Shown: positions 16,741 to 22,086 of the stretch, one piece after another
Numbering within the stretch: the stretch's first letter is position 1
How the letters are laid out: each line of letters starts with the position of its first letter
Notes under the pieces: model-generated
Told to the model about the DNA's origin: nothing
The model's input: the letters and a program-made list of their open reading frames with translations, nothing else
The model's database searches: none
Translations under genes and position numbers: made by a program
Source: an uncultured Verrucomicrobiae bacterium
GTDB taxonomy: Bacteria; Chlamydiota; Chlamydiia; Chlamydiales; Rhabdochlamydiaceae
Direction of reading: 5' to 3'
Assembly (NCBI GenBank): GCA_963818965.1
Contig: CAWFUG010000002.1
Location: 64,001-128,000, forward strand
DNA: 64,000 bases

Positions 16741-16929
16741 ATGTCCACTTCAGCTATTGGAAATCAGATTATTTTTAATTTTGCTTGGCAAGGCCCTAAC
16801 ACAAAGCACGGAGGGATAGCGAATGATGGCTTGAGTCCACGATTAATCAACTCTGTGAAGAATTTAAAGAGGATTGCATACGACAGGCAGGATCCTAGGA
16901 GTATGGATCCACTGCGTCAGTTACAGTAG
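16741..16929 (+). CDS. Short hypothetical ORF, possibly a truncated gene remnant
   Basis: Strong AAGGAG RBS and ATG; 62 aa; 3' end overlaps convergent precursor pseudogene. Confidence 0.45.
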   Translation: MSTSAIGNQIIFNFAWQGPNTKHGGIANDGLSPRLINSVKNLKRIAYDRQDPRSMDPLRQLQ

Positions 16930-17222
16930 TCTGGAGAACTGCAGCCGCTTCCACCGGGGGGACCTATGGTAGCGCCGGCTGCGATCTTCAATAAGGTATC
17001 TTCAGACATTTCGCTTTCAGGTTTTGACGGCAAATTGAGATGGATCACCTTATGCGTGCTTTCGTGAATTTCAACATGCAGCTCTTTTGGTAATGAAATC
17101 CCTTCAGCAACTAGAACTGCTTTAGGGTTTTCCAGCAGTTTTTTCTTAAATGCAGGGTCGCTTCATGCCTTGGCAATGATTTTTGCCCATTTCTTTTGAA
17201 ACTCCTCTTGATGGCTTATCAT
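16917..17222 (-). pseudogene. NHLP precursor P5 with internal TGA at codon 20; core ATIGPPGGSGCSSPDYCN
   Basis: Manual translation MISHQEEFQKKWAKIIAKA*SDPAFKKKLLENPKAVLVAEGISLPKELHVEIHESTHKVIHLNLPSKPESEMSEDTLLKIAAG-core; TGA at 17163-17165 where paralogs have TGG. Confidence 0.93.
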
Positions 17223-17247
17223 AATTTCCTCATCATTGCTATTTTGT

Positions 17248-19488
17248 TCACAGGAACATCGGGACGGGATTGAGATCAGATTCTGGGGTGGGCATGGCAA
17301 GCCAGCCCATTTTCACGGGGACATCATACAACCGACCGGGTGCAAAGCGGGTCCAAAAGTGACGCAAGCCGGGGACGATGACGCGAGCGACGGATAGCCC
17401 CACATCAGAGCGGGTCTGATCGAGGACCAAAAATTCCATGCCGAGGTCTTCGACGATCTTCTGGCAACGCTGGATGTCTTCGAGCAGATCGGTGCTCTCC
17501 CAGATCGGGTAGTCGCGTGCTGTTTTCAAAGGTCCATTCTTTTTTAGATAGGGTTGGTTCTCGAGGGTGGCAGTTCTCAACCAATCGCGCACGATTTCTT
17601 TATCGCGCTCTTCCTGTGGACTATCGATCCTCCTTTTCTCCCAAAAAGAATCGTTTGAGGTGATCTGATTCAGCTCTGACAAAGCTCTAACGAGCGCGCG
17701 TTTTGCATCAAAATGCGTTCCAAAGCCGAAGAGGATCATCTCCTCTTCTCCCTCGGTAACGCGAGAGAGTGCGACGAATGTGGGGATGCCGAGATCTGTC
17801 GTGAGATCAAGAGCCCAGAGCTCTCTATTTGCTTTTGCGTATTCTTTTTGAAGCATGGAGATATAGGGAAGAGAGAAACTCTCCAAATCCACAGCGGGTC
17901 TCAATAGGCGATTGTACCACCAGATGCCTACACCATCTCTTTCGACGAGCTCGAAAAAGCCTTGAAGGATGGCCTCTTCCAAGCAATTTCCCGCTGCACA
18001 TCCATTCGAATCTCCCGTATTGCTCCACTGAGGATCGCGCCTATCAAAATAACAAAGAGCTGTCGGGAGGTATTTCATTTTTTTCTCCGTCAAGGAATAG
18101 ACAGAGGTCCAAGAGAGTACTTTATCTTCTGGAAAGGGTTCTGAAACTTTGGCAAAGCGATGTGCGCAAGGGTTTGTCGTCTGCCTTTTTTCGTATTGTC
18201 CTTCACTGAAGAGAAGGATCCGATTGGGATGGATCGCGTCTTCTTTTAATTCTCGAAAAGAGGCCAAGAGCTGTGCATCTGTTTCTCGATAGATTCCTGA
18301 AAATCTCTCCAAAGCCTCGCAGAGTGCTCCGGCTTTAGCCATGGCAGCTGTTGTCCCTTTGCCACTGCAATGATTTCTAAAACCACTCGGCATTTGACTT
18401 TTCAAAGAATGGGGGAGTGCCCAATTCGTACCGCTAGTATACACATGAGCAGTGGGTCCAATCGAATGGTCAACGCGTTCTAGATATTTGACGATACCCG
18501 TAACGGGACTGATGAGATGGGCGTATTTTTCTACTGTCTCTTCGGGTGAGAGAATTCGATACCCATCCCCTGAAGGATCTCGTCTATCTCTACTTTTCAA
18601 GTAAACTGTGTCAGGTAGGGATTCTTCTACAGTGCAACGAGCACACGAGGAAAGGGATTGGATACAGTGGAATTCCATTTTAAGTCGAAGGGGATCGAAG
18701 AGAAGAATTTTTCTCTCTAGAGCTTCGCTTTTACCGAGGAAGATTCTCTTTAAAAGCTCGGTTGCTACCAGATGGTAGGCGATAGACCGCGTAGAAGTGA
18801 ATTTTGTAGGGGAAGGGCTGAGAGGGGCTTCTTCTCCAAAGCAGAGGGTTTCCTCTCGGCGATTGTGCTCTAATCTCTTTGCCAGACACGGGTAGCATCC
18901 TGCTTGGGTTCCTTCAAAAAAGGGACCGATCCACGCTTGGGCACCTCGCACACGCACGAGCATCCAGGGTTTGTCGCTTCTCATTTTGTCAAATGCCGCG
19001 ATGCTAGGTTCCAGATAGTCGTCTACGAGCAATACAGCTAAATCAGATGCGATAGAGTCATCGATTTGCTGGATTTGGTAAGAGTTGAGAAGAGCCAGAA
19101 ACTCAGGATCTACAGAACCACCCAGAGAAGTGATGGAAATCTTTGTGGAACGGAGGGTCGTTTCTGCAACAGCCTCAGAAATAGAGAGCAATCCGCATAG
19201 CGAGCGCAACTCTTCTGGCAAATGGGTAGACCCCTCAGAAATGAGATGTTGTGCCCTAAGTCGTTCTAAAGCGTAGTAGACCATTTCCGGTGGAGCTTCT
19301 GAGGAAAGGCAATCGACCAATTCATCTTCAGAACGCGTGCCTTCGCTGAGCAGTGGCGCGAGCAACACATACGTTTTTCCCATCAAAAACGTGCGATCCC
19401 ATTCCGATAGCAAGAGGACTCCGTCCTCTTCTATCCTCTTGATCTGGTAGGTGTGATTCCAGCTTAATAGATTCATAGCATTTTTCAT
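17248..19488 (-). CDS. Fused TOMM cyclodehydratase (leader-binding/E1-like + YcaO)
   Basis: WIGP..GCYPCL; SGKG...CEALERFS, DSNGCAAGN..EEAILQGFFELVERD; Pro-rich C-terminus NPVPMFL; start 19488 by ATGA coupling. Confidence 0.95.
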   Translation of the reverse strand: MKNAMNLLSWNHTYQIKRIEEDGVLLLSEWDRTFLMGKTYVLLAPLLSEGTRSEDELVDCLSSEAPPEMVYYALERLRAQHLISEGSTHLPEELRSLCGLLSISEAVAETTLRSTKISITSLGGSVDPEFLALLNSYQIQQIDDSIASDLAVLLVDDYLEPSIAAFDKMRSDKPWMLVRVRGAQAWIGPFFEGTQAGCYPCLAKRLEHNRREETLCFGEEAPLSPSPTKFTSTRSIAYHLVATELLKRIFLGKSEALERKILLFDPLRLKMEFHCIQSLSSCARCTVEESLPDTVYLKSRDRRDPSGDGYRILSPEETVEKYAHLISPVTGIVKYLERVDHSIGPTAHVYTSGTNWALPHSLKSQMPSGFRNHCSGKGTTAAMAKAGALCEALERFSGIYRETDAQLLASFRELKEDAIHPNRILLFSEGQYEKRQTTNPCAHRFAKVSEPFPEDKVLSWTSVYSLTEKKMKYLPTALCYFDRRDPQWSNTGDSNGCAAGNCLEEAILQGFFELVERDGVGIWWYNRLLRPAVDLESFSLPYISMLQKEYAKANRELWALDLTTDLGIPTFVALSRVTEGEEEMILFGFGTHFDAKRALVRALSELNQITSNDSFWEKRRIDSPQEERDKEIVRDWLRTATLENQPYLKKNGPLKTARDYPIWESTDLLEDIQRCQKIVEDLGMEFLVLDQTRSDVGLSVARVIVPGLRHFWTRFAPGRLYDVPVKMGWLAMPTPESDLNPVPMFL

Positions 19489-19781
19489 TGGTTGACATTG
19501 CATGCGCCGCTATCGTAACTGTAGTCACAGCTTCCCGCTGCAATTTTGAGTAATTTCTCCTCAGAGAGCTCGCCTTCTGGTTTGTGAGGCAAATTGAGGT
19601 GGATAACCTTATTTGTGCTCTCATGAATTTCCACATGTACCTCTTTTGGCAGCTCGATTCCCTCTGCCGCTAAAACAGCCGTAGGATTGTGCAACAACTT
19701 TTTCTTAAATGCGGGATCGCTCCACGCTTTGGCGATAACTTTTGCCCATTTCTTTTGAAATTCTCCGCGATGACTAACCAT
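19485..19781 (-). CDS. NHLP-family RiPP precursor P4; core SCDYSYDSGACNVNQ
   Basis: VIAKAWSDPAFKKKLLHNP...LPHKPEGELSEEKLLKIAAG leader. Confidence 0.95.
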   Translation of the reverse strand: MVSHRGEFQKKWAKVIAKAWSDPAFKKKLLHNPTAVLAAEGIELPKEVHVEIHESTNKVIHLNLPHKPEGELSEEKLLKIAAGSCDYSYDSGACNVNQ

Positions 19782-19850
19782 ACTTTTCCCCTTATATTGT
19801 GCTTCCTTGGGCCACCTTATAAAATAAAATTTTTATCACCAAGAGTAAAT

Positions 19851-21188: not shown

Positions 21189-21463
21189 TGAATACTGTTA
21201 GGGCAGTAACCGGCACCCGCCGCAATCTGCGACAACATCTCCTCAGAGACTTCCCCCTCAGGTTTGTGGGGCAAACTGAGGTGGACGATCTTGTCCGTGC
21301 TTTCATGCATTTCAACATGCACCCCTTTGGGCAGCGCAAGTCCCTCTGCCGCTAAGGTCTCTTCAGGATGGTGCATCAACTTCTTCTTAAATGCGGGATC
21401 GCTCCACGCTTTAGCGATGACTTTCGCCCATTTCTTTTGAAATTCTGCCTGATGACTTGCCAT
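21185..21463 (-). CDS. NHLP-family RiPP precursor P3; core AGYCPNSIQ
   Basis: Same 83-aa leader ending SQIAAG; AGGAGG RBS. Confidence 0.95.
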   Translation of the reverse strand: MASHQAEFQKKWAKVIAKAWSDPAFKKKLMHHPEETLAAEGLALPKGVHVEMHESTDKIVHLSLPHKPEGEVSEEMLSQIAAGAGYCPNSIQ

Positions 21464-21482
21464 ATTTCCTCCTTAAAGATGT

Positions 21483-21767
21483 TTAATGGCCCCAGCATGC
21501 ACAGCCACCTGCAGTGGCGCCTGCCGCAATCTGTAACAAAGTCTTCTCAGAGACTTCGCCCTCAGGTCTCTGGGGCAAATTGAGGTGGACCACCTTGCTC
21601 GTGCTTTCATGAATTTCAACATGCACCTCTTTGGGCAGCGCGAGTCCCTCTGCCAGTAAGGTCTCATTAGGGTGGTGCATCAACTTCTTCTTAAATGCGG
21701 GGTCGCTCCACGCTTTGGCGATGACTTTTGCCCATTTCTTTTGAAACTCTGCCTGATGACTTGCCAT
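21483..21767 (-). CDS. NHLP-family RiPP precursor P2; core ATAGGCACWGH
   Basis: Same 83-aa leader ending LQIAAG. Confidence 0.95.
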   Translation of the reverse strand: MASHQAEFQKKWAKVIAKAWSDPAFKKKLMHHPNETLLAEGLALPKEVHVEIHESTSKVVHLNLPQRPEGEVSEKTLLQIAAGATAGGCACWGH

Positions 21768-21813
21768 ATCCTTGTCCTTATACTCATTTGAAATTTTGGA
21801 TGAATAATCTGTT

Positions 21814-22086
21814 TTACATGAGTGTTACGAAACCAGCACCCGCTGCGATCTGCAACAAAGCTTCCTCAGAAATTTCTCCCTCAGGTCTCTGAGGCAAATT
21901 GAGGTGGACGATTTTGCCCGTGCTTTCGTGAATTTCAACATGCACCCCTTTTGGCAGCGCAAGGCCTTCTGCCGCTAAGGTCTCTTGGGGGTGGTGCATC
22001 AACTTCTTCTTAAATGCGGGATCGCTCCACGCTTTGGCGATGACTTTTGCCCATTTCTTTTGAAACTCTGCGCGATGGCTTACCAT
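21814..22086 (-). CDS. NHLP-family RiPP precursor P1; core AGFVTLM
   Basis: Same 83-aa leader ending LQIAAG; AGGAGG RBS. Confidence 0.93.
   Translation of the reverse strand: MVSHRAEFQKKWAKVIAKAWSDPAFKKKLMHHPQETLAAEGLALPKGVHVEIHESTGKIVHLNLPQRPEGEISEEALLQIAAGAGFVTLM

Follow-up and report, generated by a model that had tools for sequence, protein, structure and literature searches.

A probable NHLP-type linear azol(in)e peptide gene cluster with very short cores in an environmental chlamydia

The window analysed here is a stretch of 64,000 nt (positions 64,001 to 128,000 of contig CAWFUG010000002.1, assembly GCA_963818965.1) from an uncultured bacterium that GTDB places in the Rhabdochlamydiaceae (Chlamydiota), and coordinates are window positions unless stated otherwise. 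Five small genes lie on its minus strand between 16917 and 22086, each with 83 leader codons ending in IAAG and followed by a short core. They match TIGR03793, the model for leader peptides resembling nitrile hydratase (NHLP), for which the cut-off is 50.9 bits: P1 (21814..22086; core AGFVTLM, 7 aa; 74.2 bits), P2 (21483..21767; ATAGGCACWGH, 11 aa; 72.6 bits), P3 (21185..21463; AGYCPNSIQ, 9 aa; 74 bits), P4 (19485..19781; SCDYSYDSGACNVNQ, 15 aa; 82.7 bits) and P5 (16917..17222; ATIGPPGGSGCSSPDYCN, 18 aa; 75.9 bits, with one TGA inside the match). The minus-strand gene order is P1-P2-P3-SagB-P4-CD-P5, and that of the plus strand is HlyD-ABC1-ABC2, a layout that reads as two divergent operons. 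An earlier reading of the DNA made without database searches (the sequence-only reading) had listed the same five cores, all of which were recovered exactly when the translations were re-derived; its five 83-residue leaders ending in IAAG were also found at the codon level, except that the frame of P5 is broken by a TGA at codon 20.

Two of the minus-strand genes encode the predicted modification enzymes. The CD protein (17248..19503, minus strand, 751 aa) fuses a winged-helix (RRE, the recognition element of RiPPs, peptides synthesized by the ribosome and modified post-translationally)/E1-like part to a YcaO cyclodehydratase; it scored 113 bits with TIGR03882 (cut-off 36.9), 254.7 bits with TIGR03604 (cut-off 219.25) and 312.7 bits with PF02624, and possesses a PF21084 winged helix-turn-helix at residues 19–88. 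Its closest PDB relatives over residues 19–749 were MusD (7u58, E=1.8e-159), LynD (4v1t, 4.1e-159) and TruD (4bs9, 2e-152), the C-terminal LNPxPM motif was kept in all four aligned homologues, and the true start is likely to be Met6 or Met10. The second enzyme (19851..21188, minus strand) is a 445-aa SagB-type FMN dehydrogenase with a ThcOx-like N-terminal domain (TIGR03605, 172.5 bits compared with a cut-off of 78.4; PF22767 ThcOx and the nitroreductase family PF00881). Only one YcaO protein was found in the genome, which is 87.85 % complete, compared with seven matches to TIGR03793.

The three export genes adjoin P1 divergently on the plus strand, and all exceed their equivalog cut-offs. They encode an NHLP-type membrane-fusion (secretion adaptor) protein, HlyD (22180..23331; TIGR03794, 181.1 compared with 156.2 bits); ABC1, an NHLP export ATP-binding cassette (ABC) transporter whose N-terminal domain is a C39 double-glycine peptidase (23328..25472; TIGR03796, 950.4 compared with 853.3 bits; PF03412, 115.5 bits); and a second NHLP export ABC subunit without a peptidase, ABC2 (25469..28348; TIGR03797, 743.3 compared with 709.4 bits over residues 276–957). 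Residues 1–275 of ABC2 (25469–26293, plus strand) form an N-terminal extension of about 275 aa that matched no Pfam family. The closest PDB relative of ABC1 residues 1–150 was LahT150 (6mpz, E=9.5e-41), and Gln11, Cys17, His90 and Asp106 of ABC1 align with Gln21, Cys27, His101 and Asp117 of LahT, leaving the catalytic triad intact. No other C39 domain was found in the 87.85 % complete genome, and four weak TolC-like genes are encoded elsewhere in it. All the component families of the cluster (TIGR03793, TIGR03882, TIGR03604, TIGR03605, TIGR03794, TIGR03796 and TIGR03797) were thus represented above the curated NCBIfam cut-offs.

The genes are tightly packed. The P3 stop codon overlaps the GTG start of SagB (GTGA), the TGA stop of P4 overlaps an ATG of the CD frame (ATGA) and the ends of the three export genes overlap likewise, which suggests translational coupling. 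P1 opens its operon, and a strong GGAGG ribosome-binding site precedes it. The 93 nt between P1 and the HlyD gene (22087..22179) are presumed, from the layout only, to hold the promoter region of both operons. The part of this region next to P1 (22087–22165, minus strand) is homologous to about 80 nt upstream of P4 (19782..19860, minus strand; local alignment score 30 compared with a shuffle mean of 10.2, z=10), which points to duplication of a promoter/5′ region and to transcription in two units, in which case 19782..19860 is possibly a second promoter/5′ leader copy. The GC content of the cluster (0.47–0.50) is like that of its surroundings.

The set of five precursors described from the window proved to be incomplete at the genome level, since a TIGR03793 search of the 2.24 Mb assembly gave seven matches. 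The other two, the orphan NHLP precursors P6 and P7, lie 68 kb upstream of the cluster on the same contig and outside the window (G000:C2, approximately 15449–16481; positions 1465–1761 and 2207–2497 of locus L007). P6 has the core QTNPGSNTPTEGRIS after a leader ending in IAMG, and P7 has the core CWTGGTESSGNG after an 84-residue leader ending in IAAAG. Each precursor carries a single core. The neighbours of P6 and P7 are a 334-aa open reading frame (ORF) and a pseudouridine-synthase-like gene, with no modifying enzyme nearby.

With TIGR03793 scores of 72.6–82.7 bits for P1–P4 and 68.2–82.6 bits for all seven genomic copies in the genome-wide search, the leaders belong to the NHLP leader family. 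Their likeness to the nitrile hydratase alpha subunit appears as weaker PF02979 matches in two stretches that flank the deleted metal-site region; PDB nitrile hydratases also match the leader in two stretches (E down to 4.6e-17), and leader codons 1–81 specify no Cys in any copy, the metal-binding CxxCSC region being missing. The P1 leader matched the solved NHLP leader of MprE7 (8tb1) with E=1.4e-15. Amino acid identity between the P1–P5 leaders was 0.66–0.88 over the first 80 codons, and across 11 aligned leaders the invariant residues include K14, I16–W20, D22, F25, E74 and L77. Codon comparison gave a leader dN/dS of 0.07–0.40 where dS was unsaturated, pointing to purifying selection on the leaders, and the cores could not be aligned between paralogues, in keeping with the constant leaders and unrelated cores of the sequence-only reading.

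The mean pairwise ungapped DNA identity of the five cluster genes was 0.22–0.29 upstream of position −30, 0.54 at the ribosome-binding site and 0.62–0.93 within the leader, followed by 0.65 in the bin spanning the junction and 0.20–0.32 beyond it. Over the 150 nt after the leader, gapped local alignment did not rise above shuffles, except where the next tandem leader falls inside the stretch. P1 and P3 both begin their cores with Ala-Gly-aromatic (GCT GGT TTC and GCC GGT TAC), so that similarity decays over about three codons; the sharp boundary and the unrelated cores proposed earlier are confirmed. The junction reads A-A-G in the five cluster copies, A-M-G in P6 and A-A-A-G in P7, with G-G in none, and the end of the TIGR03793 model aligns to G83 in six of the seven copies. 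Relative to G83, I80 is at −4, L77 (invariant) at −7 and residue 72 (I, V, V, L, M, L and L in P1–P7) at −12, all of them hydrophobic. In the LahT150 structure, the substrate's Val−4, Leu−7 as well as Leu−12 sit in a hydrophobic groove (PMC6363468), and the shared register supports a predicted cleavage after G83.

We read the locus as an NHLP-type gene cluster for linear peptides bearing azol(in)e rings (LAPs), a class of thiazole/oxazole-modified microcins (TOMMs), in an environmental chlamydia, and put the probability of this reading at about 0.85. The component families above cut-off, the single YcaO and the single C39 domain support the earlier proposal that one promiscuous enzyme set acts on a constant leader. 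From these we infer the following route for binding, chemistry, cleavage and export. Each precursor would consist of an 83-residue folded nitrile-hydratase-like leader and a core of 7–18 residues, and the leader would dock on the winged-helix RRE of CD through its N-terminal helix (WAKVIAKAW) and through residues 72 and 77, a pair of the L(X)4L type, as homology and the work on Mpr and LynD indicate. The YcaO domain, using ATP, would cyclodehydrate core Cys, and probably some Ser/Thr, to azolines, which the SagB flavoprotein would oxidize to azoles. The C39 domain of ABC1 would then cut after A-A-G83, with I80, L77 and residue 72 recognized at −4, −7 and −12, and the short peptide would be exported by HlyD, ABC1 and ABC2 with a TolC-like outer-membrane protein encoded elsewhere. 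With a C39 ABC exporter releasing them, the peptides would be expected to be linear; the Pfam search, which covered the 10 cluster proteins and 28 ORFs around them, showed no families of PatA/PatG-type proteases or macrocyclases. One enzyme set is predicted to serve all seven precursors, including the two orphans 68 kb away.

Several observations count against this reading. In this assembly the P5 frame is broken by a stop codon, P6 has Met at −2 (IAMG) and the extra Ala of P7 puts its G84 out of the −4/−7/−12 register. The predicted cleavage motif appears to be A-G and not the classic G-G. A promoter/terminator scan did no better than shuffles (six promoter-like elements compared with 5.2±2.4, and 11 terminator-like elements compared with 7.3±2.7). 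G001, a genome of the same genus (89 % complete), shows neither an NHLP nor a CD protein, so the cluster is not a stable lineage trait. Finally, the P1 and P6 cores contain no Cys and might stay unmodified, a point that is taken up below.

The system is of a kind already described. The NHLP-TOMM models were defined by Haft, Basu and Mitchell in 2010, who also noted that the core is hypervariable beyond the cleavage motif and proposed a single cyclodehydratase for 12 NHLPs in a 3-Mb genome, for example in Pelotomaculum thermopropionicum (PMC2887384). The present cluster resembles theirs in matching the same seven models and in having some precursors far from the enzymes, and the same paper speaks, for a small genome, of ‘natural combinatorial biosynthesis’. 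It differs in ending its leaders with AAG and not Gly-Gly, in its shorter cores (7–18 aa) and in the interleaving of precursor genes with enzyme genes. Chlamydiota are not listed in that paper, where the ‘chlamydia group’ example is Victivallis (PMC2887384).

The Mpr system offers the closest experimental parallel, the YcaO cyclodehydratase MprC and the flavin oxidase MprD having been shown to process ten NHLP precursors (MprE1–MprE10) into linear azol(in)e peptides (PMC12455567, PMC12537861). Both systems have a long structured NHLP leader (81 aa in Mpr, solved by NMR as 8tb1, and 83 aa here), many cores served by one RRE-containing YcaO and one flavin oxidase (MprC and MprD being compared by description) and an L(X)4L-type hydrophobic pair near the leader end. 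MprE7 needs both this pair and N-terminal helix residues that include a Trp, truncations with L(X)4L only being nearly inactive (PMC12455567). In contrast to Mpr, position 72 is I, V or M in four of the seven copies, although Val and Phe are tolerated in MprE7 (PMC12455567); the leader here ends in A-G and not G-G, and the host is an intracellular chlamydia.

Among D proteins, those of NHLP/Nif11 clusters group with the cyanobactin D proteins and lack PatA/G (Cox et al., 2015; PMC4603692). The cyanobactin enzymes PatD, TruD, LynD and MusD, together with ThcOx, provide the closest solved relatives of CD and the N-terminal domain found in SagB, and in both systems heterocyclization of short cores is leader-directed and core-tolerant. 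Unlike cyanobactins, the precursors are not multi-cassette, the leader is a folded NHLP domain and not a short unstructured peptide, and release is by a C39 ABC exporter. The closeness of the enzymes to the well-behaved cyanobactin heterocyclases suggests that the products should be easy to obtain heterologously, and the cores are short enough to synthesize.

In the prochlorosins, a single promiscuous LanM enzyme, ProcM, forms lanthionine rings in many ProcA precursors that have Nif11 leaders and unrelated cores; a C39 exporter of the double-glycine type removes the conserved long leader, and the precursor copy number is far higher than here. The sequence-only reading had drawn this parallel, and it holds as an analogy but not in its components: the present leaders match TIGR03793 and not Nif11, and no LanM match (TIGR03897) was obtained in the 87.85 % complete genome, where absence is not established because the control genomes were silent too. 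The exporter is like LahT, PCAT1 and ComA in its N-terminal C39 domain with aligned Gln, Cys, His and Asp and in a substrate that is hydrophobic at −4, −7 and −12. It is unlike them in belonging to a three-part system of Gram-negative type, with HlyD and the peptidase-less ABC2 (TIGR03797), and in a predicted site whose P1/P2 residues are G/A, not G/G.

RiPP clusters of Chlamydiota have so far been described only at survey level, with ‘RiPP-like’ and ‘proteusin’ calls in two reports (PMC9666466, PMC13229535). No paper on an NHLP-YcaO cluster from a chlamydia came up in a literature search, although supplementary tables of surveys may list some. The only unusual point about the cluster is its environmental chlamydia host. 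As an example of azole peptide biosynthesis directed by NHLP leaders in Chlamydiota it is well resolved, and it opens no new kind of system; what it contributes is a chlamydial host, cores that are very short, and evidence for the conservation of each of them between strains.

Of 47 candidates from a protein search with P4, 38 reached E≤1e-10; four of these were this contig's own, leaving 34 relatives. Their recorded names were ‘NHLP leader peptide family RiPP precursor’ and they came from metagenome-assembled genomes (MAGs) of Verrucomicrobia and Rhabdochlamydiaceae, in agreement with a PVC/chlamydial origin. The tail after the G83-aligned position had a median length of 12.5 residues and was at most 20 residues long in 26 of the 34, indicating that short cores are a trait of this leader subfamily. 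A hypervariable core after the motif was found both in the cluster and in the 34 relatives. All 34 cores contained Cys, Ser or Thr, and 29 contained Cys. In the seven cores of the present genome, Cys, Ser and Thr made up 27 of 87 residues (31 %, compared with 13.9 % in long genome ORFs, p=3e-5), Gly 16 (18 % compared with 6.8 %, p=2e-4) and Cys alone eight (9 % compared with 1.4 %, p=3e-5). The earlier statement that the cores lack dense Cys/Ser/Gly runs was therefore overstated; that the P1 core has no Cys was correct, and P6 shares this property.

The Cys-free cores give rise to the strongest alternative, namely that the enzymes modify only Cys-bearing cores and that P1 (AGFVTLM) and P6 are exported plain or are not products at all. 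We regard this as a serious possibility, a little short of even odds. MprC, the NHLP cyclodehydratase that has been characterized, forms thiazolines in preference to (methyl)oxazolines (PMC12455567), and Cys-bearing cores predominate among the 34 relatives. The leader of P6 ends atypically and its gene is 68 kb away from those of the enzymes, and P1 has no recorded orthologue at ≥90 % identity, whereas P2, P3, P4 and P5 each have one. Yet the P1 leader is intact, its recognition residues are the closest to the consensus, and the gene stands first in the operon behind its strong ribosome-binding site. At least one Ser or Thr is present in every core of the genome, and five of the 34 relatives are Cys-free, so such cores persist in the family. 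The azoles of muscoride, the product of the pathway of MusD (the best PDB match of CD), derive from Ser/Thr, which also argues against a Cys-only enzyme.

Comparison between strains bears on how the cores evolve. Three of the proteins found with P4 share one sister contig of 61,766 nt, the exact P4 sequence is recorded on two contigs, and at the 90 % level the window P2 and P3 cluster with P0007 and P0008. Cores were identical between P2 and its orthologue P0007 (five leader changes), between P3 and P0008 (three leader changes) and for P4, whose leader was identical as well; P5 and its orthologue P0002 differed by one core change and by the Trp at leader position 20 of the latter, the leaders being otherwise identical. 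In total, eight of 332 leader positions and one of 53 core positions differed between the window and the sister contig, and a second orthologue-like pair (P0004/P0013) showed 10 leader changes and one core change. The cross-genome comparison thus bore out cores that are unrelated between paralogues, and showed them to be stable between orthologues, which indicates a fixed repertoire of distinct products and not a fast generator of diversity. ‘Hypervariable’ is accordingly true between paralogues but not through time, a distinction that matters for the interpretation of such libraries.

In the youngest paralogue pair, P2/P3 (leader dS 0.22), 36 of 39 codons at identical residues within codons 31–81 were identical, and the cores and short spacers were unalignable; this suggests that a new member starts as a duplicate whose core is quickly replaced and then held. 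The same pattern could also be produced if leader uniformity stemmed mainly from gene conversion between paralogues limited to the leader, with the leader/core boundary marking the edge of the conversion tract. Consistent with conversion, the first 30 codons of P1–P4 are 80–92 % codon-identical, four of the eight between-strain leader differences switch to the state of another paralogue, and P6 and P7 agree at 13 successive polymorphic sites (nt 223–243; pairwise p=0.0008, or about 0.017 when corrected for 21 pairs). A Sawyer-type run test over 129 polymorphic sites nevertheless gave no pair with a global p<0.3, P6–P7 being the only pair significant pairwise, although the test is blind to conversion of whole leaders; moreover, a dN/dS well below 1 already accounts for leader conservation. 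We therefore consider conversion unlikely as the main source of leader uniformity.

The preferred reading, of a LAP cluster with one enzyme set, can be extended to the more speculative and rather improbable proposal that an obligate intracellular symbiont maintains an unchanging set of at most seven azole peptides of 7–18 aa, each under purifying selection, given that cores and leader are equally conserved between strains, with new members arising by duplication and core replacement faster than synonymous change. Such a repertoire would imply seven distinct targets, perhaps inside the eukaryotic host cell or among co-infecting microbes, in place of a generic ‘combinatorial library’.

The interruption of P5 is due to a TGA at codon 20 (17163–17165), where the other six paralogues have TGG. 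It replaces the Trp of the conserved AKAW-SDP motif, which is also kept by nitrile hydratases. The intact orthologue P0002 on the sister contig has W20 and the core ASIGPPGGSGCSSPDYCN, and P5 appears to have been knocked out in this assembly by a TGG-to-TGA change. Four soil/peat metagenome runs from two studies yielded three to six short matching contigs each, mostly ≥99 % alike, but none bridges the TGA. One contig (run X4), identical over 17164–17429, stops aligning beside base 17163 with three letters left over, which is a weak hint that the base differs there. Recoding of the TGA was rejected, as the other six paralogues use TGG at both Trp codons and the sister orthologue has Trp at this position. 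A restart product from an internal GTG (a 43-aa ORF) was likewise rejected; by analogy with the truncated MprE7 leaders, which lost nearly all conversion when reduced to L(X)4L, it would be inactive.

A TIGR03793 match was present in 12 of 61 genomes (this genome and 60 relatives), above the cut-off in 10 of them, and in eight of 36 other genomes of the same family. Among the genomes compared, a full-length fused CD protein was found only in G014 (43 % identity) and G015 (39 %). G014, which represents another genus of the family, has an orthologous layout, TolC-HlyD and NHLP-CD-SagB-NHLP, with two precursors. A search with the CD protein for a near-identical strain found none, the best match among genome contigs being a cyanobacterial MAG (39 %) and the metagenome contigs giving two loci at 39–40 %.

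The flanking genes of the cluster, encoding a pseudouridine synthase and a PHO4 phosphate transporter, have orthologues in G014 that are 72 and 69 % identical. They are 17.3 kb apart here (14188–31498) compared with 2.4 kb in G014 (G014:C6:398494-400904), whose own cluster sits on a different contig from these orthologues. From the difference in spacing, the cluster and an adjacent gene for a 764-aa outer-membrane protein look like an insertion, though the GC content matches the surroundings. A rival view, in which the cluster is an island acquired recently and now decaying, with its expression lost in this strain, is nevertheless very improbable: the P5 nonsense codon, the non-canonical −2 residue of P6, the failure to find the cluster in G001 and the enlarged interval would fit such decay, but CD, SagB, HlyD and both ABC genes are full-length, above their equivalog cut-offs and intact in their catalytic residues, four cluster precursors are intact, the P2–P5 cores are conserved on the sister contig with P5 intact there, and the GC content is like that of the surroundings.

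Other NHLP loci were seen in the related genomes. At L046 (G015:C3:18000-37999), three NHLP precursors with near-identical Cys-rich cores (GES/AMGTSCGCIC...) are followed by a LanM and a fused YcaO cyclodehydratase. At L042 (G014:C3:258000-277999), eight NHLP precursors, several with Cys-free cores, lie within about 12 kb around a stand-alone YcaO-like gene that is 27 % identical to the YcaO domain of the window. At L059 (G045:C46, 60.6–63.8 kb), five tandem ORFs of 219–229 aa each have two NHLP-like domains, a GG motif and a Gly/Ser/Thr-rich tail of 40–65 residues, and appear to be a doubled-leader variant.

The 764-aa protein beside the cluster (14293–16587, plus strand) has a match to an inverse-autotransporter beta-domain (PF11924, residues 94–157) and a long, repetitive C-terminal part rich in Asn, Gly, Ser and Thr, with no NCBIfam match. 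Directly after ABC2 (28381–30753, plus strand) are three ORFs of 131, 301 and 337 aa without a Pfam family, where the local GC content falls to 0.40; the latter two look like paralogous membrane-anchored proteins. The three could be immunity or accessory genes, or unrelated to the cluster. Elsewhere in the genome, three full-length TLC-type nucleotide transporters (G000:C11:394937-396406, C1:68533-69993 and C11:80822-82297) and one fragment were found, compared with none in 14 control genomes, which fits an energy-parasitic intracellular lifestyle.

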